Source of the DNA: Mobula hypostoma
Lineage: Eukaryota
Assembly: GCF_963921235.1 (NCBI RefSeq)
Contig: NC_086108.1
Span: 56,546,001 to 56,610,000 of the forward strand
Direction of reading: 5' to 3'
Length of the DNA stretch: 64,000 nucleotides
Shown here: positions 11,311 to 62,520 of the stretch, in pieces
Layout: every line of letters starts with the position of its first letter
Position numbering within the stretch: the first letter of the stretch is position 1
Made by a program: the position numbers and the translations under genes
The notes under the pieces: generated by a model
Database searches by the model: none
Seen by the model: only the letters and a program-made list of their open reading frames with translations
What the model was told of the DNA's origin: nothing

Positions 11311-11903
11311 TTTATCCAATGGAGAGATCACAATTTTTGCCAAGTTCTTTCTCATTAATAAGCATGACTCCAGGGTTTACTGTTCAACTAATTCTGCTGT
11401 AAAACCAGGACAAAGAACAGGAACTTGGTCAGTTTTCTAGTCTTAATAGCACAAATATCCTCAAAACCTTACAACAGGCAACTCAAAATGTATAGAGGCC
11501 CCCAAATATTAAGGGAAAAATGGACATAGCAACAGCTAAACTTCAGTGTGTTGACAAAAGCAAAATTAAGATCAGCACAAATTCCAGAGCACAATTTTCC
11601 AAGCATATTAATATCACCATCAGGTCACAAGTCAGCATTAACATCAATCACCAGTTTATAAACCACAGTGGCTCAACTGCAAGGCAAATTTGGGGAGAAG
11701 TGAAACTTAAGGTTAGAGTTATGAGTTGTGAGCATGTTATGTTGGTGCTGGAAGTGTAGCAACACTTATGGAATGGCCAACATGGCCCTCACAGGTTTTC
11801 ACTGTATGCTTTTATGTACATGCAACAAATAAAGCTAAACTTTCTTTTACAAAGTCTCAGTCACATTTAAAAGCCTTTATTATTCCAGCACATGACTATC
11901 TGA

Positions 11904-12153
11904 GCAACACACATCGAAGTTGCTGGTGAACGCAGCAGGCCAGGCAGCATCTCTAGGAAGAGGTACAGTCAACGTTTCAGGCCGAGACCCTTCGTCAGGA
12001 CTAACTGAAGGAAGAGTTAGTAAAAGATTTGAAATCTCGGCCTGAAACATCGACTGTACCTCTTCCTAGAGATGCTGCCTGGCCTGCTGCGTTCACCAGC
12101 AACTTCGATGTGTGTTGCTTGAAGTTCCAGCATCTGCAGAATTCCTGTTGTTT
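11904..12153. mobile_element. Fold-back mini-PLE (inverted pLTR pair) with a hammerhead on the minus strand
   Basis: Arms gcaacacacatcgaag...ccgaga and tctcgg...tgtgttgc are inverted copies. TSD-like acatgactatctga (11890-903) / acatgaccatctaa (12154-67). Confidence 0.88.
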
Positions 12154-12334
12154 ACATGACCATCTAACCTGGTCATACAACACTAATCAAACTTTGAGCC
12201 TGCAAGACTTTGAATAGAGCTATAAAAAAAATTGCAGAATGCCTCACACTGTATAATCCACTACATACTTGTATTTATAGAAAAAGATTTCTGAACTCTG
12301 AAGATAACAAATCCGTCATTAATGTTTTCATAAA

Positions 12335-29035: not shown

Positions 29036-30102
29036 AAATTTAACAACTACGACAGCTTAATTTGTTGCATTCTCCCACAAGCGAAATAGGGAATTTTCAA
29101 TAGCAGGCCTTGACAAAACAAACATTCATACTAACTTAATATCTTGAAGGTGCTTTTTCCAGTTCTAATTAGGGATATTTTCAGTATATAATTTGAGACT
29201 AACCACAGCACTAGATTATTTTTGAAGTGTCCTTTTTGTGGTATACAATTTTCTTTGGTAACAGCATTGGAGAGTTTACTTTAGAATCATAACCAAAAAT
29301 AATGACTGGGAAGGTGGTTCAATTGTTACAGTTGGGAAGGTGAAAGGTATCGAAAATTTTCAGAGACGTTGTAATGGCTTCTCTAGTTTTTATTATTGGC
29401 TTCTGAATGAATCTGCGCCAGTAACTTTTAAAGCATCTCAGTATGAGATTACTCAGGTGATTTAGAAACCTTATTTTACCCTGTATTTCAAGGCAATCAG
29501 CAACCTCATCACATTCACTTTGTGACTGCTTTCCAAAGCTTTTGTGGGATGTTGTGAAGGCAGTGATGCAGTTCAGCATTCATGAGGGATTCAAAACTTG
29601 TGTCATTATGTTTATTTGGTTAATTTTGCAAAGAACAGCATTTCTGAATGCTGCCAAACCATTTTGTTTCTGAATTCTCTGTGGCAGTTGGGAACCAAAG
29701 GGAAATTCATGGCATATTGCTCTATTTTTCTGAATATGGATCTCAGTGTTTTTAATTTCAGAAAGCTTTGAAAATTTTCTGTTAAAGGTTTCAAAAAGGT
29801 ACAATTTGGCTTGCCTAGACTCCATAGATGATTTTGTTGTTATATTCTGCCACTCACTCTACATCAGATAATTTCGTCAGCATTTTCAGCATTTCTGACT
29901 TTGCACTTATCCTTTGCATTAAAGCTTACAAGAAAAGCTATTGCTTTACTAATTTTAAAATTTCCATACAATGGGTCTGTTATTTGCTGAAGCTAAGGCA
30001 CCTCCTTAACTACAATTATGAATAATTGTACTTTTCAGGAATAAAAATAGAAATTGCTAGAAAATAAGTCTGAAATTCAGTCAACATCAGTGGAAATAGA
30101 AA

Positions 30103-30299
30103 CACAAAATAATCTGCAGATGCTGGGGTCAAAGCAACACTCACAACACGCTGGAGGAACTCAGCAGGTCGGGCAGCATCCATGGAAAAGATCGGTCGAC
30201 GTTTCGGGCCGGAACCTGACGAAGGGTTCCGGCCCAAAACGTCAATCGATCTTTTCCACAGATGCTGCCCAACCTACTGAGTTCCTCCAGCGTGTTGTG
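30103..30299. mobile_element. Fold-back mini-PLE (third pLTR family)
   Basis: Inverted arms around 30210-30225; perfect 14-bp TSD AGTGGAAATAGAAA (30089-102 / 30300-13); CTGACGA at 30216-22. Confidence 0.9.
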
Positions 30300-32974
30300 A
30301 GTGGAAATAGAAATTGTTCAAGTTTCAGATGTGGAATTACACCAGGCCTGTGAAAGAGAAAAATAAATCAGTGAGGATAGCAGCAAACAAGGGACTTTAG
30401 CATTAACTATTTCTCTTTGCACAAATGTTGCCAGACCTGCAGAGTTTTTCTGTCATTTTATGCTTTGTATCATATTGACTCTTTTTTAAAATCCTACTCA
30501 CATAAATCTGGCCACTGGGTAGTTCCCACAACCTTACCCATTGTAAAGACCAAAAGCTTAATTTGGCAGTAGCTGCTCCCATTAAGCCAATTTGACTCAC
30601 CCTATCACAACTATTTTCCTTTTTTTCTGTACATAGCTATCCTAACTTCTCTCCCTTGAAAACCTAACTCATACCTCTCTCATTCCCAGTTACAACAAAG
30701 GATTGAAGACCAGAATGTTGACTTTATCTATTTACAGACACTGCCTGGACTGCTAAGCTTTTCCAAGATATTCCATTTTTATTTCTGATCTCCAGCATCT
30801 ACAGTTATTTTGATTTTCATTTTTTATGGTGGTGTATCTCATTTAGAGATTTTTCTAGAAGGATTAACAACACAGCTGAAATCACTTAACAACAAAACTT
30901 TTATTTATAGGATACTTTTTGAAGGGTTGTTTTTTATATGTTGATGAAATAACAGTTTCAGTATTCAATTTAAAATCATGTTTAATATCTAGAGTTTCAT
31001 CACGTCATTTCGTTATTTTCAAATTCGTTTGTGATACTTTGTGGTTTGGTGTTATTTTTAGCACATATAATTAGAAGAAAAGCATTCTGGAGGATAGAAG
31101 AGTACTGCGAAATATCGGAGATGATGAAGAATCACATATTCAAGTACATTTTCAAATTACAAGGGAAAAGCATGAAATTTTAGGTCTTAATTTGAATAGT
31201 TAGGCAGTTAAATCATCAAGAAGCATACAAGAAAAGTTTTCAGAAACTTGATCCACAAATAACCATGGCAATATTTATTTAATGTATAAGGATTGCAATT
31301 TGTCTACCAATATGTCCTTCTGCATTTCATAATCTGGTAAACTTTCAGCATCTTTGGATATTTTGCAACGTGGACCACAAATTAACTACTTCAGTGAATT
31401 TCATAATATTTAATAGAATTTGAACTCACAATTGCTAGTTAACTGCTATCAAAACAATTACAACCACCCTTTCAATGGTTGAAACTTGTCATGTAGAAAA
31501 ACCTATGGAGTGTAGTCAGGAGATATCTGGGTTAATATTGATTAGGAGGAAACTCTTAGAATATCGACCAATGGACATATTGAGATTCAGTCTTGATGCA
31601 GTCTTTTCAAGGACGTAACTGGTTCTGAGTTCAAACTGTAGAGCAGCATCGCTGAGCCTGTGAAGTGTCTCTCCCTCCAAAAGGTGCATCTTTTAAGATC
31701 CCTTCAGAGTTGACACTTAGGGAAGCCCCCAAAATGGGCTAGCAACAAAAGGTAAACATCAATGACAATTGCTTTGTGCTGATCAATCCTCCAGTTTTCT
31801 CTGTAATTTAGCCTTAATGTTCCACACACAAGGTAATATATTTAAGTTTCTTAACAATTGTTTATAATGAACACTTACATTAGCTGTTATGCCTAGATAG
31901 ATTTTATAGTTAAACACATCCATTCCCACAGCCTTTTGCAGCTTAAGTTGTCCATAGCTTCTAGTCCTCAGGATCACACAATAATGAAGTAGAATCATAA
32001 AAATATTACAGCACATAAAAAGGCCATTCAATATAATTCCATTATTCAATATAATTCCATCATCCATCACTTGATCTGTAGCCATGTAGGTCACAGTTCT
32101 CCAAGAATGGGATGAGGATTTACCCTCACCTACCTTCTAATCCTCTGTACCCTCCCCAGTGCACTCACAATTTTCCTACAATTTGATTAGCAGAATTGTT
32201 AGAACAAAGTCATAGTCACCAGTTTTATTTATGTTGTACACATTACATTTTATGCCTCAGATAATTAAAAATGCACCCCATATCCCTTTTTAACCACATT
32301 TTTGATCAGTGCTGATACTTTTAGTCCCTTTCGATTTTGCATATCTTTCAATATCGTCCTACTTAATGTGTCTTCCCCTGCCATATTGAACTTCCTCAGT
32401 GTATTACCACACTACTATGTGTTAAATTCCTTTTTTAACTTCCTGCAGATCTAGTCCTTAGGTTACAGTCTGCATCCTATGTTCACCAATAGGAGAAGCA
32501 CACACATAAATCCAGTCTCTTGCTAGATCAGGCTCCAGCCAATATAGCCCCATTTTCATGTATTGTTTATTTTTCCTATCTGTTTGATAGAAAAAGTGCT
32601 TCTAGACCGTGTAAAATAGTATGTTTTATATTTAGAGGGATTTTTTCTGCAAAGTTATCAGCCATTAATATTGGGATGGTATTGAGAAGCTCAAATCCAG
32701 TCATTGAGAGTGTACAGAAACGGTTGAAGGAGCAGACCCCTTCACCAACTACCTACTCACCAGCCCAAGTAGCAGAACTAACAACTATGCCATCTATTTT
32801 CCCGTGGATCTAACGATTGCCAATGGCCAATATCCTTTTATTTCAGCCAGTAGCTTGCTTTTTTTGAAATAAGGGTGCCTCTTTTCTCCTTGCTTTCTGT
32901 CTAGATTCTAGAATGCATCATAGTGCCCTCATGATTCGATATGGACAAAGTTGACCCCAAAGTTTATTATAGAA

Positions 32975-41701: not shown

Positions 41702-42870
41702 CTGCATCAGCCTTTGGTACATTGGAAGGACTAGGTTCAATTTTTTTTAAGAGACACTGTTTCAGAAGGCAACTTTTCTTCATCTAACTTTGGATTTACT
41801 TCTCTAGAAATGCTTAAGTTATCAGTCTGTGTTGGAGATATGTTGTTTACAGGAGATTGAGTGGTACCAGCTGATGTGATTGAAGGTTGAAACTCCAATG
41901 CTTCCTTCATCTCCTTTTCTTCCATTGATTGTTTATTCTCTGATTTTTCCTCTAAATTCCTGATGATGAGTGAAGCTGGAGGTGATTTTAAGTATGAAGA
42001 GATTGGAGAGTTTTCACGTTTTGGTGCAGGTGTAGTTCCTGATGATTGTGTAACTGTAGGTTTTTGGGCACCTGGATCTGTGGCTATAGATTTTAGTATG
42101 TTGCCATTTGGCTTTTCCTTTGAATTTATGATTGGTGTAAATTTATACTCTGGTTTCGATTCATGATCCTCATGGGCTATGGAACTTAAAGCTTCCATCT
42201 TAGAATGAGAGAATGATAATGCCAATTCTGGAGCTGGAATTGAAGATTCATTATGCAATCCAAATGCAGGACCTTTCTCATTTACATTTTTTTCCTCTGA
42301 ACACTGCAAAGCCTTGGCAGTAAAATGGAAGAAAGGTTTTTTAGTTGTTGCATTTTTGGATGGATTAGTGACACTAATATCTTCCTGCTTTAGTTTTTGC
42401 TCTCCTGCTAAGCCTTTGAAGTTTAAGGCTTCTTTCGCAGTTCTGTTGCAGGATGAAATCATGAGGGCAGTAGTAAGAGGCTTTTGTGGACATACTACAT
42501 CTGCTCTAGTGATAAATTTGCTCACTCCTGGCAAAGGTCTGCTAGATGTAATGCCAATTTGCATTTTGCTGAGTTGGTCACTAATCAGTGTAATTATGTC
42601 CTTTATTGGTTGATTTTTTATGTGCTGTTTTGTCTTCAGAGGTTTAGTTGTCCCATCACCTGCCAATAAATATATTTGTTGATCGTGTGATTTTGTGACT
42701 CTTTTCACAGTTTTTACAGGCAATTCCAGGGACTTGTTAAAAGACTTTATTGTTTCATGTGATTTTGAGCTATTTATAGAACTAATTGAATAAAGATACC
42801 CTGAATCTGTGATTGATTTCACTTGTCGATTCCATGAATGGAGATCAAAAGGGCATGATTCACTTTCAAC
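41702..42870 (-). CDS. Large (1169 nt) exon of the C1orf141-like gene; S/T/P/K-rich low-complexity region, stop at 41737-39 just before the donor
   Basis: Acceptor cctttatttacacag in phase 0 with the 47819 exon; about 377 open codons (VESESCPFDLHSWNRQVKSITD...TVSLKKN); donor GCAG|gtaaca at 41702. Confidence 0.75.
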
Positions 42871-43533
42871 CTGTGTAAATAAAGGAGGAACATAGATTTC
42901 TAGCTCTCATTGGAAAAAATTAAATCAAAAAAATTACTTTTGGATTGCAAGCATTTATTTCCCTCAACCAATATTTTGTTTATGTCAGCTATGCAGAATT
43001 AAGACACAGTGGCCTAGAAATGTGATGGTTTTGTATCTATTTGTTAGCCAGTAGAAAAGCATCTAAACTTGTAAGTCAGGAAGGAAACATATTAATTACA
43101 TGTACTCCACCCCCACCATATTGATAAAGGCAAAAAGTATTTTCAAATCCCCAAATCAAAATATATGTATAGTCAAAGCAATAGGTGAAATTCCTGACTG
43201 TGGCATCATTTGTTTCCAAATTTTTTTTAAACCTGTTAAGCAGAATTTTTATTTCTTCTTAGGAGCCTTTCGCCCTGGTTGTCAGAAAATTAACATGTAG
43301 GCCATATTTGCTGCTGACCTATGTGCTGAGACATTGGCATTGTGAACTTGCTCGTTGATTCTATCCTGATGCTATGTGATGAGGCCTTCAGTGATGGCTG
43401 GTCTTGCGTGTATAAATGAAAGAAGGAAAGAGAGGGCAAGACTACCAACCTCCCCCCCCCCCCCACCCACCATGCAATATTTTGATTGCTGATTAAACCA
43501 TGCAAACTTATCTAAAGAAGCTGCATTCTAATA

Positions 43534-43613
43534 CGAGGTTTCCCAACCTGGGGTCCATGGGCCCCTCAATTAATGGTAGGCATCCATGGCATAAAAAAGG
43601 TTGCGCACCCCTG
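43534..43613. mobile_element. 80-bp hAT (Charlie-like) MITE
   Basis: Perfect 8-bp TSD TTCTAATA (43526-33 / 43614-21); TIRs cgaggtttcccaacc / ggttgcgcacccctg. Confidence 0.85.
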
Positions 43614-43799
43614 TTCTAATACAAATTGGACTTTCCGTACTGAAGTTCCATGATATAGTTTACATTTCAATCCCAATTTCACAGACTGAAAATTGGGATT
43701 CAGTGTCCAACTGCAGTATCTCCTCTATACACGTTCAGCATTCAGGTGTCAAATTGAAAGAGACAGTATTCAGAACTTTCCAGGTCTCAGCTTGTGCAA

Positions 43800-46740
43800 A
43801 ACAGAACATGGAATATAGAACAATAAATTCAGAACAGGCCCTTTGGCCCACAATGTTGTGCTAACCTTTGAACCTACTGCAAAATTAATCTAACCCATCC
43901 CTCCCACAGAGCCCTCCATTTTTAGAACACAGAACAGAGAACATCACAGCATGGTTTAGTCAGCTTTCAACACCACAATGTTGTGCCTTCTTTTTAAAGT
44001 ACTCGTAAGATCAATCTAACTCTTGCCTTCTACATAGACCTCCATTTTTTCTGTCATCCAGGTGCCTGTCTAAGAGTTACTTAAGCACCCCTATTACATC
44101 TGCCTCTACTACCATGCTACAATTCACTGGGTAAGGAACTTACCTCTGACATTCCCCCTATACTTTCCTACAATCACCTTAAAATTATCCCCTCTTTTAT
44201 TTGCCATCTTTACTCTGGGTAAGGAATTTACCTCTGACATTCCCCTTATACTTTTCTACAATCACCTTGAAATTATCTCCTCTTTTATTTGCCATTTTTG
44301 CCCTAGGTAAAGTTTTTGGCTGTCCACTTAATCTATGCCTATTATCATCTTGTACATCTTTATCAAGCCACCTGTCAACCTCTTTTGCTCCAAGGAGAAA
44401 AGCCCTAGCTGACTCAGCCTATCCTCCATAAGGCGTGCTTGCTAATCCATCCTGGTAAATCCCCTGTGTACCCTCTCTGAAGCTTCCACATTCTTCCTAT
44501 AACGAGGCAACTAGAATAGAACACGATACTCCAAGTGTGGTCTAACCAGGCTTTTATAGATCTGGATCATAACATCATGGCTCTTGAACAAAATCGCTCA
44601 ACTAATGAAGGCCACCACACCATATACCTTTTTAACCTCCTTATCAACTTGCATGGCAACTTTGAAGGATCTATGGATGCAGAACCCAAGATCCCTATGT
44701 TCTTCGACACTGTTAAAAATTTTGCCATTAATCCTGTATTCTGCCCTCAAGTTGCACCTTTCAAAGTGAATAACTTTAACCTCTTTCCTGGAATGAACTC
44801 CATCTGCCAATTCTCAGCCTATTTCTGCATACTAATAATGTTCCTTTGTAATGCACGGCAACCTTCTACACTATCCACAAAAGACCACCGACCTTTGTGT
44901 CATCGGCAAACTTACTAACCCATACTTCCACTTCCTCATCCAAGTCATTTATAGAAAATAACAAAGAGCAAGACGATTCTGAATCCATGCAGCTAACTAA
45001 GTTTCCCTGGATCCCATTCCTCCTGACCTTTTGACTGAGCCTGCCATGGGGAACCTTGTCAAACATGCTATTAAAATCCATATACACCACATCAACTGCT
45101 CTGCCTTCATCAATTTGTTTTGTCACTTACGCAAAGAATTCATTTAGGATTGTGAGGCATGACTTGCCCCTCACAAAGCCATGCTGACTATGCTGAAGTG
45201 GGCTATGTTTCACCAAGTGCTCATAAATCCTGCTTCTATGAATCCTCTCCAATAGTTTACCAACCACTGATGTAAAACTCACCAGTCTATAATCCCCAGG
45301 GTTACACCTATCATCTCTCTTGAAGAAAGGAGTGCTATTTGCCAACCTCCAATTTTCCCCAACTACTCCAATGGCCAGTGAGGAAGCAAAAGTTATTGGA
45401 AAAGGTACAGCAGTCTCTTCCCTCACTTCCTGATCTGAGGTGTATCCTATCCAGCCCAGGGAACTTACCTATCCTCATGTTTTTCAAACATTACAGCACA
45501 TCCTCTTTCTTAACATTGACATGTTCCAGCATATCATCCTGTTCTATGTTGACCTCATGTTTGTCAAGGTCCCTCTCACTAGTAAGTACTGAAGCAAATT
45601 ATTCACTAAGGACCTCCCTACCTCTCTGTACTCTAGGCACATATTTCTTCTCTTATTCCTGATTGATCTTATCTTAACATTTTCTATGTTACTCTAGCCA
45701 TCCTCCTATTCTTAAAGTATGTGTAGAATGACCTGAGATTTTCCTTAATCCTACTCGCCAAGGCTCTTTCATGTTCCCTTCTAGCTCTCCTAAGTCCATT
45801 CTTAAGCCAATTCCTGGCTACCTTGTAACTCTCTAGAGCCTTCCCTGATCCTTGCTTCCTATACCTTAAGCCTGCTTCTTTCTTCCTCTTGAGTCGATGT
45901 TCCACATCTCCTATCAACTATGGTTCCTTTACCCTACCATCCTTTCTCTGCCTCAGTGAAACAGACCTATCCAGAACCCTGTGTAATTGGTCCCTAAACA
46001 ACCCCCAAATTTCTGTTACGCAGTTCCATGAGTACACCCATTTCCAAGTTCATGCCTAATAATATCATAATTTGCCCTCCCCCAGTTAAGTACTTTCCTA
46101 TACCATCTGCTTTTACTCTGTCTATGGTAAAGGTCAGGGAGTTGTGGTCATTGTCGTCAAAATGCTCACCAACCAAGAACCCAACCAGGTTCATTGCCTA
46201 GTGCAAATATAGTATGGCCTCTCCTCTAGTTGACTTTTCTACATATTGTCATTGTCTACACATCAAGAATCCTTCCTGGACACACTAAACAACTTTGGCC
46301 CCATCTAAACCTTTTGCCAATCAATATTAGTAAAGCTGAAGTCATCCATGACAGCAACCCTGTTCTTTTTGCACTTTTCCCAAATCTGCCTCCTGATCTG
46401 CAACTCAGTGTCTCTGTTGCTACTGGGGATTCCATAGAATACGCCCAATAGAGTGTTTAATCATTCCTATATCTGAATTCTACCCACTCTGATTCAGTGA
46501 ACAATCCCTCCATGATATCCTTTTTGGCAGATGTGATACTATCTCTGATTAGCAATACCGCTCTTCTCACCTTTTTTACCTCTCTCCCTGTCCCTTTTGA
46601 AACAATTAAACCTTGAAACATCTAGCAGCCATTCCTGCCCCAGGACAGCCAAGCCTATGTAAGGGCCATAACATCATAGTTCCATGTATTGACCCATGAT
46701 CTAAATTCATTTCCTAATACTGTAACATCATAATTCACCC
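43800..46740 (-). mobile_element. Degenerate long CR1 LINE (EN + RT) with stacked 3' ends
   Basis: ORFs 44866..45126 DEGRAVDVVYMDF..FDKVPHGRL..SKFADDTKVGG; 45127..45426 WRLAN.TPFFK..PGDYRLVSFTSVVGKLLE..QHGFVRGKSCLT; 45994 VGEHFDDNDHNSL. Confidence 0.92.
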
Positions 46741-46937
46741 TCTTCCAACAAACCTTTCCTGACCATGATTCCCCTGCCACCTTTCCACTCTCAGTCCACA
46801 ACAGAGACCTATATCAGAATCAGGTATATCATCACTCACATATGTCATGAAATTTGATTTTTTTTGGAGGTAACATATAGTGCAATACATAAAATACTAA
46901 AGAATTGTGCAAAGGTCTTGGACACCCTAGCTATATA

Positions 46938-47480
46938 TGTAATGCCCTGGTTAAGGTTTTTACTGCTGTAGGTATTTCATTTTAGCAGTTCTGAAGAGCA
47001 GTCTACAGTATTCTGCTTTCAGCCTGTTTGGGTTTGAGCTGAGATAAGAGGCTTTGTTGTTCAACTTAGGAATGTGTTGTCAGCTAATCAGGATGGTGGA
47101 ATTGGGAGATGGTTCTGGAGAACACTGCATGTAAAGGTTTTGTGAGGGACACTGGTGTGGGTTGAGGTCTTTTTTGGCAGGAGCAGGGAGAAGACAGGAG
47201 GGAAGGTGGCTGAGGATGCCATCCCTGTTGCACAGGATGCTTTGTGCAGATGAATGACTTCAAGGAGGAAAAACCAATACTCCTGTGGGAGACCTGTCTG
47301 TTCAAGATGGATTTCAAGCGACATTCGGAAAGTGGTGTGTGCTTTCACGCAGACTGAGTGTCCAATTCATGAGTTACAGACAAGTTCAAGTTGAACTCCA
47401 ACTTAAGTGCATATTTGACTGTTTAAAAATAATGCATCTCAGGATTCTCTTTCTTGTACTAACTTTTTTTGCTGTAACAT
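46938..47480. repeat. Possible LTR fragment
   Basis: Begins TGTAATGCCC within a TA run and may end ..GTAACA; no clean TSD. Confidence 0.35.
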
Positions 47481-47818
47481 ATCCAATCCAGTGGGCAGTC
47501 TTACTGAGTTGCATATGCTATGGCAGGGAGAATTGGCTCCAACTATGACTCCTTAATCAACAACCTTAGGCCTAACATTTTTTTTGTCCTCACCTACTGT
47601 TTTGTTCTTGTTGATGCAAATTATCATTGAATGCTGTGATGAGATACTGTAGATATTACTCCATAATTATTTTGTGAACTCCTCTTCAATGCTTATATTA
47701 TGTCTTAGCATGGATTTAATATTGTTAACAATCTGTAAAAAGTGCCCAAATATCTTATAATCTCCAATTCCCTTAGTAGGTAGTGTTAAGCACCAAACTT
47801 AGGTATTACAGCACTCAC

Positions 47819-47996
47819 CTGTGGTGGAAGTTCTTGTTGTGGAGATAAGCTGATGATCTTTATGTTAGGTTTTTTCATTTGATCCTCAATGCTGAGAGGT
47901 ATGAGTGTTGATTCCAAGTCTATATTTTCATTTTCCAATTTTTTCATGAGTTCTTCACACATTTTGGATGGTTTTCTGATGTCAATCAGTCTCTCC
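47819..47996 (-). CDS. C1orf141: C1orf141-like exon with the conserved motif (ERLIDIRKP...TLIPLSIEDQMKKPNIKIISLSPQQELPPQ)
   Basis: Acceptor ttattactttacag, donor CAG|gtgagt. The motif resembles human C1orf141 [22 protein letters not shown] (recalled), and the position and strand relative to SLC35D1 match human. Confidence 0.75.
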
Positions 47997-48119
47997 CTGT
48001 AAAGTAATAAACAGGTTAACAGTTTCACCAAATTTCTCAAATTGTGTTACTTTCTTGAATATGTTTGGTCCTGATCCATTAGGCTTTATACTAAAAAGCC
48101 AAAGGCTTGTTCAGTTGAC

Positions 48120-51100
48120 AGGGATTCCTTTCAGACTGACATGGAAAATATACTGAAGAGTAAGGAAATATGGAGAAATCAAACAAATATTTTATGTGTC
48201 TTCAAGTAAGAAGGGCAAAAAAAGCTCCAGAAATCGTGGGGATGATACATCTAAAGTGAATGAGGATCTCAAAGAGATTAGTGCTTATACAAAGTATCGG
48301 AAAAATTGATGGGATTGAAAACAGTTGGCTGTGGAGAGAGTGAAAGCAGTGTCTGTCATTTTGGTAAATTCCATGCACTCCAAAATGGTTCCCAGAGAGT
48401 AGAAGGTAGCAAATATAACCACACCATTACAGAAAGGAAATAAACCACACACTAGTTAAATTGATTGGGCACTTAGAAAATACTCCCAGGATTGGACAAT
48501 ACAAGCATGGATTTCTGAAAGGAAGTCATATTTGACAAAAGATAATGTGTTGGAGATGGTTTACATAGCTTGGCAGGGATTTAGAACTTGAAAAGAATCA
48601 GAAGGGAGAAGAGCTAAAATGGAAATTAGAAAGGCAAGGAGAAGGCAATCATGCAGGAAATGATAGGGATAACACTAACCTGAGTACATTGGGAAAGAAC
48701 AGAGTGCACACATATGAGTACATGAGAGTACAAATTGAGGACGAGTTCATTGCATACTTCCAGGATGGTTTCCGAGAGCAAGGCACTAAGGAGACAGCCA
48801 GTGGGCAGGCTATTTTGATCTGTTATTATGTAATGAACCAGTGTTAATTGATGATCTTTTAGTAAAGGATCCCCTTGAAAAAGGTGACCATAGCATGGTA
48901 GAATTTCAAAATCAATTTGAAGGTTAGAAATTTCAGTTTAAAATGGTTGCCTGGATTAAGGGCAGTTATATCGATTTGAGTATGGAAATATCCAAAGAGG
49001 ACAAAAATAGAATGAAGAGTAAGATTCAAGGTTCAGGATTGTTTAGTGTTATTTCCTGTATACAAGAGTAAAGGAGAACAAAATAATTGTTACTCCAAAT
49101 CTAATGCAACACAAGAAAAAAAAACACATAAGATAAAGAATCAGAATCAGGTTTAATCTCAACGGTATATGTCATGAAATGTGTTAACTTTGCAGCAGCA
49201 GTACTCCATAATTCACACTACATGATAATATAGAAAAACCGAATTATGGTAAGTATATATGTATATTAAATAGTTAAATTTAATAAGAAGTGCAAAAACA
49301 GAAATAAAAAAGTAGTGAGGTAGTGTTCATGGGTTCAATGTCCATTCAGAAATCAGATGGCAGAGGGGAAGAAGCTGTTTCTGAATTGCTGAGTGTGTGC
49401 CTTCAGGTTTCTGTACCTCCTTCCTGATGGTATCAATGAAGAGAGGGCATGGCCTGGGAGGTGGGGGTGCTTAATGATAGACACCACCTTTTTGAAGCAC
49501 AATCCCTTGAAGATATCTTGGATACTATGGAGGTCAGTGCCTATGATGAAGCTGAGCAATTTTACAACTCGCTGCAGCTTACTTCGATTCTGTGCAGTAG
49601 CCCCCCAACACCTCCACAGTATATCTGTAGAAATTTGTAAAGTACACAATCAGCTCTTTGGTCTTACTGATGTTGTTGAATGCAAAGTTGTTGCTCTGAC
49701 ACCACTCAACTAGCTGGTATATCTCACTCCTGTACACCCTCTTGTCACCATCTGATATTTGCCAACTATGGTTGTATCATCAGCAAATTTATAGATGGCA
49801 TTTGAGCTATGCCTAGCAAAGCATTCACGAGTACAGAGAGAGTAGAGCAGTAGGCTAAGCACACATCCCTGACGCACGCCAGTATTAATTGCCACTAAGG
49901 TGTAGATGATATTACCAATCTGCACAGATGGTGGTTTTCCGTCTAGGAAGGTGGGGATCCAGTTGCAGACGGAGCTACAGAGGCCCAGGTTCTGTAGCTT
50001 TTCAATCAGGCCTGTAGGAATGATGGTTTTAAATGCTGAGCTATAGTCAATAAACAGTATCCTGACACAGGTATTTGTATTGTCCAGGTGATCAAAGACC
50101 ATGTGGAGAGCCATTGAAATTGTGTGCACCATAGACCTATTGTGGCGACAGGCAAATTGCAGTGGGTCCAGATCCTTGGTGAGACAGAAATAGATTCTAG
50201 CCATGACCAACCTCTCAAAGCATTTCATCACCATAGATGTGAGTGCTACTGGACAAGAGTTGTTAAGGCAGCTCACACTACTCTTCTTGGGCACAGGTAT
50301 AATTATTGACCTTTAGAAACAGGTGGGAACTTCAGTCTCTCTTCAATGTCTTCAATCTCTCAATACAATAATAGGAACATAATAATAATCACAATAAATA
50401 TAAAGATGTAAAATTATATATATAGATTGATTGTATATCCATAAAGTGATGGCTCGATATTTTTGAATCCGTTGGTCCTGAGGTGGACGCTACAAAGCCT
50501 CCCTTCTGATGGGAGTGGGACAAACAGTCCATAAACAGGGTGGGTGGGATCCTTCATGATGTCACTGGCCCTTTTCCTGCACCTTTCTGTCCTTGATGGT
50601 GTGTAGGCTGGTGCCAGTGATGCGTTGGGCAGTTTTAGCTACCCATTGCAGAGCCTTCCTGTCTGCCGCAGTGCAGCTTTGTATCAAGCAGTGATGTAGC
50701 ATGTTCGGGTACTCTCTACTGTGCATCTGTAGAGTGCTGTGAATATGGATGTCATTGTCCAGATCACTTCAGCCTCCTCAGAAAGTAGAGCTTGCCTGAC
50801 TGATCAACTGTGAAAGGCATTTCACAAATTCCAGCAAAGGTATATTCTAGTAAGAAAAGCTAATTGAGAAGGATGAACTATCAGATGATATCAAATTGAA
50901 AGAAAAAAAAACTAAGATTAATGGAAAGAGAGAGGGTAGATAAAGCAAACATTGGTCCTTTAAAGACTGCGACTGAGGAATTAATAATGAGAAATAGAGA
51001 AATGGCAGTGATTTTAAAATATTACTTTCAATATCTCAAAATATCCCAACAACGATAGACATCGAGGGATTAGAGGGAAGGAGGAATTTAAAACAATCCT

Positions 51101-51490
51101 TTTCACTAAACTGCAGTGGGCAAAGTAAAAGAGCTAAAGGCTGAGATATCCCTGTATTTGATGGCCTTTGACCTATAGTTTTAAAAGAAATGGCTGTAGG
51201 GATGGTGGTGATATTAGTTGCAAGTTAAATTCTAGAGAGATCTCGACAATTAGAAAATGACCCATCTATGCCATTATTCAGAAAGGGAGATGGAGAACAG
51301 GAAATTATAGTGAATCTTTAGAATTCTCTACCCAAGAGAGAGAAGAAAACTCTGGGAGCTCGGTCACTGAATTTATTCAAAACAGAGATCAAACAATAGT
51401 TTTTTAAGTTATTAGGCAATCATGGGTTTAGTTCAGCAAGGTGGCATCAAAATAAAAGAAAAATTACCCAGACATGAGTTGCTGGCTGGC
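48120..51490 (+). mobile_element. Old CR1 fragments, split at 49020/50800 by nested insertions
   Basis: EN remnants (FQDGF..AILDL.LCNEP..KDPL..DHSMVEF) on the left and RT-proximal remnants on the right. Confidence 0.7.
49140..50335 (-). mobile_element. Rex1/Babar LINE, 5'-truncated RT
   Basis: ORF 49710..50294 CLNNSCPVALTSMVMKCFERLV..DPLQFA..RILFIDYSSAFKTI..QGCVLS..KFADDTTIVG; (TCTGAT)n tail at 49140. Confidence 0.93.
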
Positions 51491-52044
51491 CTGCTCCTCT
51501 CTCTATTTCTTATTTCTCCATCTGTTAATTAGCCATTATACTTGTATACAGTAGGCATGTTTACATCCCATATCCACACCCTCCTTTACAACATCCTGCT
51601 TTTTCAGATTGCCATTAAGCTACATACTCATGGCAGGCGGCCAAGGAGGGAAGAAAGGTTTTATCATATTAAACAAGATGATATCAAAATGACAAGACAC
51701 AGGAAGCAAATCTGAGGATGCAATAGCTGGGCTTAGAATCACCTATTTTAATGACTCCTCTAGAAACTCTGCAGTGGAATGTAGAGGGAAAAACAGGAAC
51801 AGTTTGAGAGGAAGAATGTTAAGTCAAGCAAAACATTCGGGAGAACACATTGTAAGTAAATGTAAAGAACCATCTGCCCTACCTCCAGCATTGCTTACGT
51901 GGTGTTCAGCAGTATAAGTTCAATATATTTACTTGGACAGTTAATATAAGAGAACTACTTCATATGCATCCATGCTAAGCATTGTCTGTTCCAACAAAAA
52001 AGGTGATATAGAGCAAAAGTGGAAGCAGCATTAGTTGACTCTAA

Positions 52045-52270
52045 GACCATAAGACATAGGAGCAGAATTAGGCCATTCAGCCCATTGAGTCTGCTTCATC
52101 ATTCCATCATGGATGACATATTATTTCTTTCAACCCCATTTATCTGCCTTCTCCTCGTAACATTTCACACCCTTACTAATCAAGAACCTATCAACCTCTG
52201 TTTTAAAGATACCTAATGACTTGGCCCCCACAACCATCTGTGACAATGAATTCCACAGATTCACCACACT
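52045..52270 (-). mobile_element. CR1 3' end
   Basis: VVNLWNSLSQ..AKSLGIFKTEVDRFLISKG and tail ctcctatgtcttatggtct. Confidence 0.85.
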
Positions 52271-52593
52271 AATTATCCTAACATTCTGTATAATCCTGGA
52301 AGGCAATTCAGGTTGAAATGTCATCTGACTATTCAACCATAAAGTAAAATACCAAGAACTATTGATAAGGCACACATTAATTAAATGTTGATCTTAACCT
52401 ACCCTCCATACTCCAGTTGAGTGGGTTCTGTTGACTGATGACCATTTATCCCAACCCGGATTTTATTTGGATTTTGAAGCTGCTGTGCAACTAGTTTTCC
52501 AACTTCACCATGAATGCAGTACCTATTTTCCTGGGTATCACCTTTGAAAAAGAGTAAAGCAACACATTTGCAACACATTCACCTTCTACACAG

Positions 52594-52820
52594 CAACATA
52601 CATCAAAGTTGCTGGTGAACGCAGCAGGCCAGGCAGCATCTATAGGAAGAGGCGCAGTCGACGTTTCAGGCCGAGACCCTTCGTCAGGACTAACTGACGA
52701 AGGGTCTCGGCCTGAAACGTCGACTGCGCCTCTTCCTATAGATGCTGCCTGGCCTGCTGCGTTCACCAGCAACTTTGATGTATGTTGCTTGAATTTCCAG
52801 CATCTGCAGAATTCCTGTTG
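52594..52820. mobile_element. Perfect fold-back mini-PLE with hammerhead cores on both strands
   Basis: 95-bp perfect inverted repeat (52593-687 / 52694-788) with a 6-nt loop; 16-bp perfect TSD TTCACCTTCTACACAG (52578-93 / 52821-36). Confidence 0.95.
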
Positions 52821-53683
52821 TTCACCTTCTACACAGGATATCTTTCGTCTTTGGTCAATCAAAAGTAATGCTGTTTGCTTCATAGAGTAAAAAGGGAGTT
52901 CACAATGACAGTGCTCATTTCCTTAGCACCTTTACAATAAGGGAATGTTCAATATTACAATTAATGTGGATTTTGCTAGTGCCCTTACCCATGTTTCACT
53001 GGGGCTGGTTGTGGCGTTTAAGTCATTGTAGTCTTGTGCATTTTCCTTTGGGACTGAGGTTCAAGGGTTAAGTTGTAATCAAAAGTCAAAATGGAAAAAT
53101 ACTACCATTCCTCTGACATTAGAGTTACTTTATACTAGGTCTGCCTTGAGGCAATTTAGATGGAACTTATTGTGTTCCATGTGTGATCCAATAGACTTCA
53201 TTAAAAGGCCTGGGCAGCTCCACAGCAGAAAGTTTGACCTTTACAGACATAAAGTCAAATTGTAATCCAGTCGAAGGAATGGGGCAGACATCACCAATCC
53301 AGGAATCATATAGACATATTCACTCGCCAGAAAGTCTACTTCCTACCTAGAAATAGCAATAGATTAAAATGGTAGAATGTATTCAACCTTGAGGTTATTT
53401 GCATTATTCTGTCCTGAACCTTGTCCTCCGGTTTCATCTATTGTATTATTGCTTCCTGTAAGGACATGCAGTTTTCAAGCACAGCACAGACACTGGCATT
53501 TGCACTCATTAACCCACCCTGATAGTTTTCCCTCATCACACCCATCAGCTGCTCTACTTACCTCCTACAGAAGATGGCAGCAAAACCACACATTTGGCTG
53601 TATCAGTGAAATGTTAAATTGTCTTAGGCCTACATGCAATAGAGATTAAAAACTGATCTGCTGGCAGTCCTCTTTTTACTTAC

Positions 53684-53831
53684 CAGTGAAGGCACTTATA
53701 GGTGTTTGTTCTTTACAGGAATTGATCCCCGTGATAGAGTACCAATGTGACTTGTCCTGATATATTTGAGAAGCACGAGCGATAGCTTTGTTGTCATGTA
53801 GGAGCATTTGCAGATGAGGAACTGTCTCAAC
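53684..53831 (-). CDS. Putative second coding exon of the C1orf141-like gene (148 nt; VETVPHLQMLLHDNKAIARASQIYQDKSHWYSITGINSCKEQTPISAFT)
   Basis: Acceptor tattttgctcaaag, donor CTG|gtaagt; open in phase 0, joins the 57971 exon. Confidence 0.55.
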
Positions 53832-54059
53832 CTTTGAGCAAAATAGATATTACACCATTCACTATTTCTGAAACTATCAGAATATTAATGACAGGAGACA
53901 ATTTATGCCTGGAAATATACAGTATATGAAAGGTTTTTAATTGTCCAATGACAACTCAATGTAAGCTATCAAGGCTGAGTTTTTATTATTTCTCAAATCA
54001 TATACATACAGCCATAATATAACAGAAATCATATAAATCATTACAGAAAAAAAAATGGA

Positions 54060-56650
54060 GACACCAGAAACAGCAGATACTGGAATCTGGAGCAACACAT
54101 AATTTGCAGGAGGAACTCCACGGGTTGACCAGCACCGGTGGGAGGAAGAAATTAGTGTTGTTTCGGGTTGAATGTTTCAGGACTGAGAGTAGAAAGGCAA
54201 GATGGCCAGCATAGAGAGGAGAAGGAGGACTGTAAGAAAGGATTATAAAGTGATTGTTGTACTGAGTAGGGGTTTAAGATGGTAGGCAGGGAAGAGAGGT
54301 TTGCAGGGTAGCAGGTGAATGATGGAGACAGACAGAGGGAGAGTTTTTTAAAAAAAACAACAGATGGAACAAAATGGGTGGAGGTGAGTCTGAAGGTGGA
54401 AGACAGCTACTGGAGGGAGATAAACTGGAACACAAAATGCTATCAGGGTTGAACTTGGATAAGTGAAGGAGGTGACTGTTCGAAGTGAAGAGAGAGGTGA
54501 ATGAAAGTTGGAACAAGGTGGGGGGTGGGGGGAACATGTGTGTGAAGTGAGTGGACGGAGCCAGGAGGGGGAAGGGGGACAAACATAACAGGACCAGAGG
54601 ATCAGAAGGAGGAAGGAAGGAGAAAAGGGTGGGGGTGGTGAGAAGGGTTAAAAAAAAGGAGGGGAGGTACCTAAATTTGGAAAACTCAACATTCATGACA
54701 TTGGATAGTAGATTACCCAGGCGGAATATGAGATGAGATGGCTGTAGAGAAGGCCAAGGATGGACAGGTCAGTGTGCGAATGGAGTGGGATGCTGAAATA
54801 GTCTACAACTGGGACCACAAGATGACCATTGCAGACTGAGTGCAGATGTTCTGTGAAATGGTTGCTGAGTCTGCACTTGGTCTCACCACTGTAGAGAACG
54901 CCACATCAGGAGCACTAAATGCAGTAGACAGGGCTGGAGAAGATGCATATGAACCTTTGTCTCACCTGTAAGAACTATTAAGGTCCCTGGACAGTGGTGA
55001 GGGGGAAGTTGTAAAAACAAACGTACCATCTACTGTGAGGTCAGGGGTAAAGGAGGGACGGGTTGTGGAAGGATGAGTGGATCAGGAATCATGGAGCCAA
55101 TGGTCCCTTGGAAGTCAGAAAGGGGTGGGGAGGAGTAGTCATGGCTATTGGTGGATTGAGTTGCAGCTGGCGGAAATAATGTAGCATGCTGGATGCGGAG
55201 GCTCATTGAGTGAAACTGGTATACTAGGGGTACTCTATCTCTGTTCTCTCTGGGAAGAGGTGTGTTGACTGTTTGTATGAGAAACAAAGGAGATGCTCCT
55301 CCAAACACAGTAGAAGGCTGTGCTTCCTGAGAAAGGAGAACATTTCAGACGTCCTGGAAGAGAAAGCCTCTTGAGAACAGATGTAGCGGAGATGGAGAAT
55401 CTGGGAAAATGACATCCTTACAAGAACAGAATAGGAAGATGTGTAATCTAAGTGGCTGAGAGAGTCAGTGGTTTATGATAAACCTAGACGGATAGTTTAT
55501 CTTCTCAGATGGAGATAGTGAGATCTGGAAAAGGGAGAGAAGTGTCAGAAATGGTTCTCGTGAACTTAAGAGCAGAGTGGAAGTTGGCAAAAGTGATTAA
55601 ATTGATGAGCTCTGCATGGATGTAAGAGGCAGTGCCAATGCAGTCATCAGTTTAATGGAGAAAGAGTTGGGGAGTGGTACTGAAGAAGGTTTGAAACAGG
55701 AAGTGTTCCACGCAACCAACAAAAATACAGGGAAAGTTGGGGTTCATGTTTAATCCTTTAATTTGTAAAAGGAGAGCAGAGTCAAAAGAGAAATTGTTTA
55801 AGGTAAGGATATGTTCAGCCAGGTGGATGAGAGTATTAATGGGGGTGAACTGGTTTTATCCTTTTTGTAGTAAGAAATTTCTAGACCTTCCTGATTTGGG
55901 GTGGGGGGGGGGTGTAGGTAGAAGTGTATAAAGACTGGACCTCCATAGTGAAGATGAGGCATTGGGAGCCAGGAATCTGGGAGTTGTCCAAATGGTGGAG
56001 GGCATGCGAGGTGTCCTGGGTGTAGCTGGGAAGGGACTGCACAGAAAGAGACAGAATGGAGTTCAGGTATGAAGTACAGGCAGAAAAAATAATTTTGTGG
56101 ATCTTGGGTAACGGATAGAAGCAGGAAGTGTGATATTGAGGCACTATCAGATTACAGGCTGCAGAGGGGATTTCTCCCAATTTAATGAGATCCATGACAG
56201 TGTGGAGATGATGACCTGGCATTTATTGGTGAAGTCATCATTCATGGATTGGTAAGAGGAGGTATCAAGAGTTGTTACTTGGCTTCTCCAAGGTAAATGT
56301 CAGTCTGCCTGATGACAGTGCCACCTCCCCCCCCCGCCCCCGTCAGCGGGTTTGATAACTAGGTTGCGGTTGGTGTGCAGTAAGGACTGTGAACAGGTCA
56401 GCGTGGGAATAGGAAGAGAGTGGAAATGGTCTGCAACTGAGAACTCAGGTTTGTCATTGCGGGCTACAAGTAGGTGTTCTATGAAATAGTCTCAACGATG
56501 TAGAGAAGTTTACGTCGGGAGCATGGAATGCAGTAGGAAGGATTAGAGGAGATGTATTTGAGTGTTTACCTCACCTGGAAGGACTGTTTAGGTCCCTGGA
56601 TGATGGTGAGGGAGGTGGTGTAAAGACAAGTGTTAGATCTGTCCTTAATT
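54060..56650 (-). mobile_element. Long degenerate PLE (RT + GIY-YIG + pLTR)
   Basis: ORFs 55881..56222 FYPLPKIHK..YTQDTSHALH..IFTMEVQSLYTS, 55224..55415 FSQILHLRYICSQ, 55030..55308 NRDRVPLV, 54274 MNVEFSKFR; pLTR at about 54060-54190. Confidence 0.88.
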
Positions 56651-57049
56651 CAGTCAGTAGCACCTCACTCTCCTCATGCTCCACCAGATCTCTCTTCCTT
56701 TCCTCATCTCTGTCTCACCACAGCACCTCATCTTCTGACCTCGTACCTCACCCTTAGTCTCATACTAAACTTAATACCTTCTCTCTTCTTTCTGTGATCT
56801 TCCCTCCTCTCACCTCAGCTCCTCTCCTCATCTCACCTCCCCATCCCCCTCCCATTACCCTCATCCTCCTCTTCTGACCCTAATCTTTGCTCAACTCCAA
56901 CCGCTAGTGGTTTTTCACCATGCCCCCTGACCTCTCCCTCTCTGATACCACACATTCTGGCACCAATATAGCATACCCACAGAGTTCAGCAAAACAAAGC
57001 AAGCCGCAGTAACAACAACAATAACAGAACAAACTCCTTTCCCACCCTA

Positions 57050-57050
<1 letters not shown>

Positions 57051-57086
<36 letters not shown>
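57051..57086. repeat. (CA)18 microsatellite inside an unclassified minus-strand repeat (about 56940-57660)
   Basis: Direct reading. Confidence 0.95.
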
Positions 57087-57089
<3 letters not shown>

Positions 57090-57970
57090 CCCTGACCCCA
57101 TGAAAGGCCACCTGTGGGCCTCCAATCCTTGGCTTCAGACTTTGAACTTGCAACCACTTGTCCTCTGACCTCTGGACAAGCTGGGCTTTGAACCAGGCCT
57201 CCACCTCCGAACTTGTTGATTTCTGCCTTTGACCTTGGGGCATCTACCTCTGGACTCCCAGTGCTCTGGACTTTGACCCTTGGCTTTGTCCTCCAGACTT
57301 GACTGACCTCTGGGTACTGACTGCTGATCATGGGTTTGACTTTCAGGCTTCGATACCAGGACTTGTCAATCGTAGGCCTGGACTTCCAGGCTCACATAGT
57401 CCTCTAATGCTGGTGACCTGGGGAGTAACCAACCTCATGACTCCATATGGATCTCTGACCTGGGACTCACTGACCTGGGGGGGGGGGGCTGGGTCATTGA
57501 CATACAATTGTGGAGTATTCTGACTTGGATTCCGAAGACAGACTCCTAATCCTGACTCTTCATTTACTGCCATGACCCCTAACTCCCTCTTCTGTCCCCT
57601 AAACCATCACTACAAACCTACAAAACAACTTAAGTCTGAGCCATGACAACAGCACATGGCCAGTTTGATTTTTAGAACACATTGTCAAACACGTCTCTAT
57701 CCTTCCACCCTTCCATCATCTCTGCCAAGTTCCCTCTACTGTTTTTCTCCTCCACCCCACCTGTGTCATCTCTAACTCCATAGTCATTGGAACTGTGTCA
57801 ATACTTTCGGAATGTTAGGTCTACAGCTGTCAGATATAAGTCTTACACTGGCATACAAACATCTCTGAGTAACAGATTCTGCAACCATTTGGCATCCTCA
57901 GATTCTTGCGAACTATTTGGACAAGTTAAAAATGCAAAGCCGAGTGAGAGAAAGTAATATGATAATTTAC

Positions 57971-58051
57971 CTCTTTGATCCAATTAGTTCGTTTAAATAT
58001 TGCTTGAGGTTGTACTCTTGTTTTATCTCTGTAGTTAAATCCAGCAGCCAT
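57971..58051 (-). CDS. Putative first coding exon of the C1orf141-like gene (MAAGFNYRDKTRVQPQAIFKRTNWIKE); exon starts at 58065
   Basis: Acceptor ttttgctacag, ATG in strong Kozak context (aactATGG), 27 codons, donor GAG|gtaaat in phase 0. Confidence 0.55.
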
Positions 58052-58524
58052 AGTTTGGACCCTCCCTGTAGCAAAATTTAAGTAACATAAGCCTTCCAGG
58101 ACATAATAGACATATGTAGCTATAAACAGAAAATCTGTCTTTTGGGTAAATTGTTATATCAAGCTGACCCAAGTGAATAAATAAAGATCCCATGGCACTC
58201 TGTGAATAAGAATATGATAATTCTTCATGCCTTCCATCACAGCTAATGGAGGATTTCTGAATGCAAATCCGCGTATGTCTTCTCCATTACACTAGTGTCT
58301 ATACTTGACCACTACTTCACTGATTGTACAACAGTAAGTAATTTGTGTCTTTCAATGTAAAGGCAAGTTGCTTTTCATTTGAAAAGTCTAAGCAAATGAT
58401 CTTTTGCAGTAGTGTTTTTGGGCTAATGAAGCCTAGCCCCAAGTAACAGAGTGCATTTTTTTTCCCTAGACAGCTCAAGTCAACATCAAGTATTCTCAGC
58501 CATCAAGAGTACACTAATTAACAA

Positions 58525-58685
58525 ATCACACAAAATGCCGGAGGAACTCAGCAGTCCTGCTGAAGGGTCTCAGCCCAAACCATCAACTGTACTCTTTTCC
58601 ATGCGTGCTACCCGGCCTGCAGAGTTCCTCCGGTATTTTGTGTGTGTTGTTTGGATTTCCAGCATCTGCAGACTTTCCCTTGTTT
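58525..58685 (+). mobile_element. Older fold-back mini-PLE
   Basis: Short inverted arm cacacaaaatgccggaggaactc / gagttcctccggtattttgtgtg; 11-bp TSD CTAATTAACAA (58514-24 / 58686-96); decayed hammerhead (CTGCTGA). Confidence 0.85.
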
Positions 58686-59314
58686 CTAATTAACAACTGC
58701 CTTGACCCAAATGTAAATTATAATACAGCATGGTTTTGTTTGGTAGACATGTCAGTTCAGACGAACCAGATTTATTTTAAGTTAGCAACACAATTGTGAA
58801 TGGTGGAATTTAGATTCAAGATTGATTAATGTCATTTCCTGTACACAAGTGTAAGAAGAATGAAAAATATTAGGAATGTGGTGGGGATAATTTTAACCTA
58901 AATCAAACAGTAAAAATTCGAGAAGACTCATGATTAATGCACTGGTCAAAAATTTGGTCTATTTTCCCTAGCTCTTCACCCCATTTAATTTCAGCTTTCC
59001 TTTCCAACAGATTCCCATCTGGCCCATCCTTAAAATTATATTTCTCTTCAAACACTTCACCAACACTCTTACCTCATGCTCTCTGAGATAATTTTCTCCA
59101 TTAAATGTATCTCCTGCTCTCTATTACCACTAATTATCTGAGCATCCAAATTCACTGGATATTGTAAATAGTATCTTTATCACATATAGTAAGTATACCA
59201 TTTTCTTTTAATTCACTGCTGCAGTATGTTCTTTAAAAATGATTACCTTTGAAAAACATTTCCTATGCTTTGCACCTGAACTGGAGAGGGACTAATATCT
59301 TAGAGACTAATATC

Positions 59315-61825: not shown

Positions 61826-62520
61826 ATTCAGCCCTAGTTCTTGCTCTGTTTGATTCACGATCATACCAGGCAATGTACCAGAAGTGAATGAGCTGATTTT
61901 CTTTAATTATTGACATAAGCAGATCAATATCTAGATATTTATTTTAAGTTTATTTATGTAGAGTCATACAACATTGTTCATTTTTATGTAACTTTTTGAA
62001 AATTATGTCAAAATGTAATTGTCATGTAATGTTCTTTGGAAAATACATAAATTCTAAACAGTTTTCAGAGACTAAACATACATTGGTTCTATAATTATTG
62101 CTTTTGTCATGGTCCAGATCGGGGTCCCTTTAAATTTACCTTGTTTACGTTACGATCCGGACCGTTGATTCCCTGTTTTCCTGTGTCCCTTGACTTTGGT
62201 GATTAGAGGCAATTAGCACTCGGCTGAACCGGTAGTTTATAGTCTCCGGCTTTCAGCCGTTTGGCGCGGGAGTGTCTGCAAAGTCATCCAAGGTACGGTG
62301 TGCCGATGCCATCTGGCCGGAGCAAGCCTAGTCTCTGCTGAAGTGAGTGCCAGTAATTCGCCTCTCCTCACCGGAACAACCCTGTCCGGTTACCTCACCA
62401 AAGCGAGCCTGCAAAGTTTCCTCACCGAGGTGGGTCTGTCAGTTAACCCGCCGGAGGGAATCAAGAACCGCTGTCTACTGTTCCCAGGCTGAGTCGAGAG
62501 CTCGCCACTACCTGGAGGTT

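Follow-up and report, generated by a model that had tools for sequence, protein, structure and literature searches.

How did a perfect palindrome of PLE sequence, tailed on one side only, come to lie in an intron of a ray gene? The question is posed by 227 nt at 52594-52820 of a 64,000-nt stretch of DNA from Mobula hypostoma (the window), which lie between the two copies of a TSD and can be dissected as follows:

52578..52593, plus strand: left copy of the 16-bp TSD, whose last 2 nt (AG) also match the template at an internal start site
52594..52697, minus strand: inverted, tailless, 5'-truncated pLTR piece of 104 nt (equivalent to 1222-1325), including the spacer at 52688-52693
52694..52697, unstranded: 4-nt microhomology CTGA at the head-to-head junction, matching a short inverted repeat, TCAG/CTGA, that the pLTR itself contains (1222-1235)
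52694..52787, plus strand: direct 5'-truncated pLTR piece (equivalent to 1232-1325)
52788..52820, plus strand: 33-nt PLE tail, on the right arm only, with homologues at 12118-12153, 58653-58685, and 30103-30135
52821..52836, plus strand: right copy of the 16-bp TSD

Each arm (52592-52687 and 52694-52789) runs to 96 nt without a mismatch, and the 6-nt spacer GACTAA (52688-52693) separates the two; the arm length comprises 94 nt within the insert and 2 contributed by pairing of the AG of the left TSD with the CT that starts the tail. A preliminary description of the locus had spoken of perfect 95-bp arms, which is right as to their perfection and off by one as to their length; its 6-nt loop, perfect 16-bp TSD, and 227-bp insert are borne out. 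The two TSD copies agree at 16 of 16 positions, and the window has no other match even when up to 2 mismatches are allowed (shuffled sequences average 0.12 such matches, and 2 of 100 shuffles reach 2). As RNA, the insert folds at -222.7 kcal/mol (z = -30), a stability equaled by none of 200 shuffles, and either strand reaches about -223 kcal/mol. The insert is nevertheless asymmetric: the 33-nt tail (52788-52820) extends the right arm and is found neither on the left arm nor at 1325. Loose ends of contigs at 52816 and 52822 place the 3' end of the PLE family at about 52822, and the first TT of the right TSD also matches the template. One plus-strand frame (52696-52821, 42 codons) is open across the whole right arm and tail, consistent with a PLE ORF that starts within the pLTR and tail.

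The source family is represented at the very beginning of the window:

1..1324 (also given as 1-1325), plus strand: longer, defective, tailless PLE copy with a CX4CxxC linker, a GIY-YIG domain (625-930), and a 3' pLTR with a hammerhead

Compared with the pLTR at 1222-1325, each arm differs by two substitutions (1266 and 1287) and the last base (1325), giving 97-98% identity; the preliminary description had counted about 2 differences from 1232-1325, to which that last base has to be added. The left arm, when reversed, corresponds to 1222-1325 and the right arm to 1232-1325, with the substitutions common to both. The spacer is pLTR 1226-1231 read in the orientation of the left, tailless arm, of which it is a part, and the two arms overlap by the CTGA at 52694-52697. 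The pLTR lies downstream of the 625-930 frame, which matches the Pfam GIY-YIG domain (PF01541) with an E value of 2.6e-05, above the cut-off. This domain has two cysteines between its VIY and YIG motifs and two histidines downstream, and the linker CKRNKCYTC just upstream of the frame conforms to the CX2-5CxxC pattern as the domain does to the CCHH motif. By the definitions in the available text of PMC8557442, its motifs make this a putative Neptune- or Nematis-type endonuclease, the choice between the two being one that needs the RT, whose core lies before the start of the window. A Pfam search of 3-500 returned no match. The endonuclease frame is interrupted by a stop at 622, and the reading frame changes between the ORFs at 3-503 and 178-624; this copy is thus defective and ruled out as the source of the protein, implying an intact copy elsewhere.

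Two pLTR ends, both 5'-truncated and fused head-to-head, thus make up the insert, and only one of them has the tail. An inverted, 5'-truncated copy, a one-sided tail within the range of 30-40 nt, and a TSD that is single at the empty site are all found here; the first two, together with a TSD, belong to the PLE anatomy already described in the accessible portions of PMC8557442, PMC3846280, and PMC8969392, a precedent that the preliminary description did not mention. We are hence confident that the hairpin is a single PLE insertion, and the earlier reading of it as a PLE-derived retro-insertion holds.

Its history can be followed in the contigs of 4 of 23 public runs, namely, X4 (organism A), X5 (organism B), X9 (organism C), and X12 (organism F), with organisms D, E, and G left out; none of the 23 is recorded as RNA, and four that were guessed to be RNA, with 5-8% of the words, were likewise left aside. 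In all three organisms other than A, contigs cross the site without the insert. A 1686-nt contig of X5 (record 16) joins 52280-52577 to 52821-53180, the two segments being contiguous in the record (1350-1647 and 988-1349), so that it lacks 243 nt, i.e., the 227 of the insert and 16 more, and keeps exactly one TSD copy, as the preliminary description had predicted for relatives. In X9 (record 23) and in X12 (record 1), a single contig passes directly from 52566 to 52821. Beside the target site, an 11-nt tandem duplication (52567-52577) is present in organisms A and B and absent in C and F; it predates the insertion and falls in the branch-point region of the host intron. In X4, contigs cover 52280-52616 and 52801-53180 with no differences from the window and include both flank junctions. 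No empty allele of organism A, such as the polymorphism suggested in the preliminary description would entail, was seen among the listed pieces of this single run, whose contigs drop alleles. Substitutions in the flanks number 11 of 658 in B (1.7%), 24 of 647 in C, and 33 of 647 in F. The insertion is lineage-specific and younger than the split of A and B, about 0.8% per lineage; the locus is a clean presence/absence marker for lineage A. The claim that it is very recent is sustained to this extent only: at the full age of the split, 1.9 mismatches would be expected over 112 paired sites, and the probability of none is 0.15, so the perfect arms by themselves date the insertion weakly.

Perfect palindromes are a known artefact of assembly and library construction, long ones are unstable, and no piece bridging the central junction occurs among the 32 listed of about 133,800 contig pieces, X4 possibly being the source sample itself. 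A fold-back chimera is hardly credible all the same. The flanks are unique and not mirrored, both flank junctions occur in run contigs, relatives lack exactly the insert and one TSD copy, and the TSD, the one-sided tail, and a junction within pLTR sequence all match three diverged sister hairpins in the window:

11890..12167, plus strand: older hairpin of the same family with a 47-nt spacer, 2 mismatches in 83 arm positions, a 14-bp TSD with 2 mismatches, and the tail on the right arm
30089..30313, minus strand: hairpin of an older subfamily, in the opposite orientation, with a 14-bp TSD and 7 mismatches in 75 arm positions
58514..58696, plus strand: hairpin of an older subfamily with an 11-bp TSD, a short (33-nt) tailless arm, and a long tailed arm

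Each of the four hairpins has a TSD (16, 14, 14, and 11 nt, respectively), a tail on one arm only, and its own junction. Their inserts measure 227, 250, 197, and 161 nt, and their arms differ at 0 of 94, 2 of 83, and 7 of 75 positions and, in the last, at 4 of 34 with one additional gap. In three of them the tailless arm is the longer, in the fourth the tailed arm, and the arm that owns the spacer divides likewise. For the three hairpins whose arm cores were compared, each arm is closest to its own partner (0, 2, and 7 differences within versus 6-30 between hairpins). Single-arm pLTR pieces are also present at about 22990, 32980, and 54060-55518. Since the junctions differ among all four, the hairpins are independent insertions rather than a hairpin MITE family, and counting copies that share one junction would mislead.

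These sisters bear on two further explanations. In one, a non-autonomous hairpin family, MITE- or retrozyme-like, is copied as a unit, and its appeal lies in abundance: 67,022 (X4), 41,064 (X5), 11,686 (X9), and 16,418 (X12) contigs align to the stretch, their depth being concentrated over the element, and 15,298 of those from X4 do so at 99% identity or more (summed contig depth is not copy number and was not used as such). PLE-derived non-autonomous retrozymes do exist, going by the available part of bioRxiv 10.64898/2026.07.22.740005. We nonetheless judge such a family highly improbable, the four window copies differing in junction, length, and TSD size, and the 15 listed of the 492 joints in the contigs of the four runs being scattered. 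Specifically, a MITE-like family fails on shared internal structure and fixed TSD length, with four junctions and TSDs of 11-16 nt among four copies. Some contig joints may be alignment effects among diverged PLE copies. In the other explanation, the palindrome would have formed after insertion, either through a second insertion at the same site or when a longer inverted element lost part of its sequence, and gene conversion would have equalized the arms, making older DNA look young. Inverted repeats can indeed convert and delete, and a symmetric joint at a CTATAG palindrome (52640-52645 and 52736-52741; 52643 to 52738), seen in all four runs in 5, 8, 2, and 1 contigs, is either a recurrent junction or a product of central deletion, the latter suiting this proposal. 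Yet both arms lie within a single TSD, the sequence missing from the empty site is precisely the insert and one TSD copy, the layout recurs four times in 64 kb, and the older sisters have gained arm mismatches (2, 7, and 4), so conversion is not equalizing their arms. An origin after insertion is therefore very unlikely.

With four in this 64 kb, insertions of this kind appear to be very numerous in ray genomes. The window base at 52782 makes up at most 20% of the depth in X4 versus 2-5% in X5, X9, and X12, and that at 52728 makes up 31% in X4 versus 3% and 2%, but 71% in X12; these shares are a weak hint that a PLE subfamily has expanded in organism A. The window holds other inverted or repeated structures. 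An inverted pair at 14472-14742 (96 nt, 79%, 79 nt apart), where we take a frame to resemble the C terminus of a PLE endonuclease, is possibly a hairpin of a second PLE family. An inverted 102-nt pair (89%) at 23879-24397 lies inside a LINE-like fragment related to 60125-60880, which suggests a LINE inversion; 16447-17600 is a Tc1/mariner-like DNA transposon remnant with 133-nt inverted arms at 89% and a DDE_3 match; and 62451-63429 contains tandem arrays of 35-, 72-, and 58-nt units.

How, then, did one insertion event yield two arms? We favor, as the probable route, a two-nick priming process in which each nick in the target primed its own cDNA. The protein would be supplied by an intact copy elsewhere, and its GIY-YIG endonuclease would nick both strands 16 nt apart, each 3'-OH then priming a cDNA. 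One cDNA would start at the end of the tail and the other at an internal start site 33 nt upstream, each start having a 2-nt match between target and template (TT and AG). Both might stall after about 100-130 nt, whereupon their 3' ends, TCAG and CTGA, could anneal, and fill-in would produce the palindrome along with the TSD. The accessible text of PMC11167929 offers precedent in the PLE protein of the anole Poseidon element, which in vitro nicks and extends both target strands, and in two start sites of anole reverse transcription that delimit the tail. The same source finds no strand preference of these start sites, which counts against the two-nick route. That the longer arm is tailless in three hairpins and tailed in one is something that two independent cDNAs allow.

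The principal competitor to two-nick priming is also a single PLE insertion, with the second arm made by self-priming: a tailless cDNA or an antisense RNA would fold back at TCAG-GACTAA-CTGA and copy itself, and the tail would be added or trimmed as the ends are resolved. Antisense-RNA self-priming was proposed by Arkhipova et al. in 2013 (PMC3846280), where, in the portion available, palindromes at inverted junctions are interpreted in this way. The junction of our insert offers a 4-bp stem with a 6-nt loop, its arms are identical where other copies differ, and the symmetric CTATAG joint of all four runs also speaks for self-priming. Moreover, the microhomology at the junction is an inverted repeat of the template itself, so that fold-back of a tailless cDNA or self-priming of an antisense RNA yields the same product, which speaks against two nicks. 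The finding that the arms are mutual closest relatives would suit the copying of one from the other, and templates from the same source or a succession of subfamilies also explain it. Against self-priming, the sister at 11905 lacks microhomology at its junction and has 47 nt of spacer, that at 58522 has its spacer on the tailed arm, the 4-bp stem is weak, and a tail on one arm still requires a second priming or resolution step. On balance we regard self-priming as possible, if rather unlikely. Fold-back of the tail-primed cDNA alone is ruled out for the 52594-52820 copy by the spacer, which is antisense on the strand starting with the tailless arm.

Generalizing from two-nick priming, it is an even call whether short hairpins are records of two-ended PLE priming in which the two RT start sites are used one per nick. 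If so, two-ended priming would explain in a single step the inverted pLTRs with a one-sided tail, whose formation is called unresolved in the published PLE work, as far as its accessible text goes. Within the literature searched (titles and the openings of abstracts, with few subscription papers), we found neither short PLE hairpins in rays nor twin priming in PLEs, nor a statement of the idea of one start site per nick for inverted pLTRs. The single locus matters little in itself; its value is that of a sample from a large natural series, in which the geometry of junctions over many young copies with empty sites could separate two-nick priming from self-priming.

The preliminary description had further noted back-to-back hammerhead cores, and the sequence CUGACGA..GAAACGUC is present on both strands of the insert. 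The two motifs are of unequal completeness:

52655..52692, minus strand: complete minimal type I hammerhead with a 5-bp stem I, CUGACGA, an extra A, a 4-bp stem II closed by G.U, and GAAAC/GUC without loop 3
52694..52726, plus strand: truncated hammerhead core in which the 5' strand of stem I is missing (stem I of 0 bp)

A pattern search of both strands of the window gave six core matches, with a stem I of 5 bp at 1232 (plus), 52687 (minus), and 11998 (minus), 0 bp at 52694 (plus), and 3 and 2 bp at 27669 and 34777; Rfam models at the gathering score gave no match in the window. The minus-strand motif has the core, the extra nucleotide at 9/10.1, a stem I in the 4-5 bp range, and the palindromic 15.2-16.2 positions; it lacks the G10.1-C11.1 pair, which is G.U in its subfamily, the older copies at 30103 and 58522 having C. 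The plus-strand motif has no stem I. In the monomer fold, the core pairs with itself, and within the hairpin, both cores are locked in the stem, from which freeing stem I is predicted to cost about 64 kcal/mol. The complete motif is on the strand of the host pre-mRNA (minus), on which the antisense arm is transcribed first; the 96-bp stem would accordingly form and the hammerhead would be unable to fold. A working ribozyme at this locus is thus unlikely on these predicted folds, and two working back-to-back ribozymes are rejected, as only one forms stem I and both are buried. What stands of the original claim is a core on each strand.

The transcript in question belongs to the following gene:

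41737..58051, minus strand: host gene with five coding exons (58051-57971, 53831-53684, 52541-52403, 47996-47819, and 42870-41737), GT-AG introns, and an open frame of 559 aa
52542..53683, minus strand: host intron 2, 1142 nt long (899 nt without the insertion), with the acceptor AG at 52543-52542

The gene was recognized from a 389-aa minus-strand frame (41737-42906) with one homologue, an uncharacterized Narcine bancroftii protein with 52% identity over half of the query, which was the only match among 2493 candidates; an earlier search of longer proteins gave none. Together with the repeat content, this homologue suggests a ray as the source. Further exons were located by tblastn with the N. 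bancroftii isoforms, and the five-exon model is the best of eight open combinations. Pfam gave no match for the last exon. The gene could be an orthologue of C1orf141, given its position beside a gene that we assume to be SLC35D1-like: the minus-strand frame at 21897-22040, starting MSAEPMTVFLKL, resembles, in our estimation, the first coding exon of a nucleotide-sugar transporter of that type, and Pfam and PDB searches of the exon near 22030 gave no name.

The hairpin is in intron 2, with the base of its stem 50 nt upstream of the exon 3 acceptor. The duplicated target preserves the last 52 nt of the intron as they are in the empty allele, and the predicted accessibility of the last 40 is 0.39 in both filled and empty in silico alleles, lending no support to an effect on the splice site. 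Two AGs of the insert that are preceded by a pyrimidine (52691 and 52641) lie within the loop edge or the stem. An influence of the hairpin on splicing or editing of exon 3 is doubtful, and most likely the insertion is a neutral passenger. Since the insert is intronic, the formation of double-stranded RNA from its transcript is plausible on the modeled fold; as the preliminary description proposed, such RNA might be a substrate of ADAR or Dicer, and the DNA might extrude a cruciform. If hairpins were equally dense genome-wide, much of the perfect dsRNA in the introns of rays would come from them. Within 20 nt of the acceptor, exon 3 positions 52523 and 52528 show organisms B, C, and F agreeing against the window, making these changes specific to lineage A. 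About 470 nt separate the sister hairpin at 58514-58696 from the start codon of the host gene, upstream of which it may occupy a promoter or an intron of the 5' UTR.

Several parallels are offered by known systems. In the twin priming of L1, two target nicks prime two cDNAs, which are joined by microhomology within one TSD to give a 5' inversion, and mostly non-overlapping parts of one RNA are copied; in the ray insert, both cDNAs would instead span the same 94 nt, resulting in a palindrome rather than an inversion. The closest likeness is to Pen2a and Pen3a of Adineta vaga (PMC3846280; scheme in PMC8557442, Fig. 2), which, in the parts of these sources available, share the head-to-head 5'-truncated pLTRs and the 30-40 nt tail on one arm, as well as a TSD around the insertion, a junction marked by an overlap or a palindrome, and an empty site with one TSD copy (PMC3846280). 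The ray insert departs from these rotifer elements in that both arms are cut down to about 100 nt and enclose no ORF, so that the whole insertion is hairpin, in its TSD of 16 bp versus 8-10 bp in the rotifer examples there, and in its host, a cartilaginous fish.

The Poseidon element of Anolis carolinensis (PAc) shares the hammerhead in the pLTR, two classes of 3' end separated by the tail, and extension on both strands (PMC11167929, available text). Unlike Penelope and Poseidon, which are without it in the accessible part of PMC8557442, the ray family has a CX4CxxC linker; unlike that of PAc, its target is not strongly AT-rich; and in the text available of the PAc work, the two start sites are not linked to inverted insertions (PMC11167929). 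With the minimal type I hammerheads of metazoan PLEs, as given in the accessible portion of PMC4209133, the ray motifs have in common CUGANGA, an extra nucleotide before stem II, GAAAC/GUC without loop 3, and a 5-bp stem I. They differ in that the ray cores are 6 nt apart, one is without stem I, and stem II is closed by G.U rather than the conserved G-C. The same source reports that such hammerheads need a dimer and cleave weakly, and that pairs on opposite strands occur 100-700 bp apart in Schistosoma. Non-LTR retrozymes are likewise short, non-coding, pLTR-related, and hammerhead-bearing; in the available text of bioRxiv 10.64898/2026.07.22.740005, their units follow one another head-to-tail and each contains a complete ribozyme, whereas the ray insert is head-to-head with its ribozyme sequestered, and its single complete hammerhead, against at least two complete head-to-tail units required, removes it from that class. 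New in the present analysis is the placement of the insert: it occupies intron 2 of a host gene that is intact, and a splice acceptor follows 50 nt downstream.
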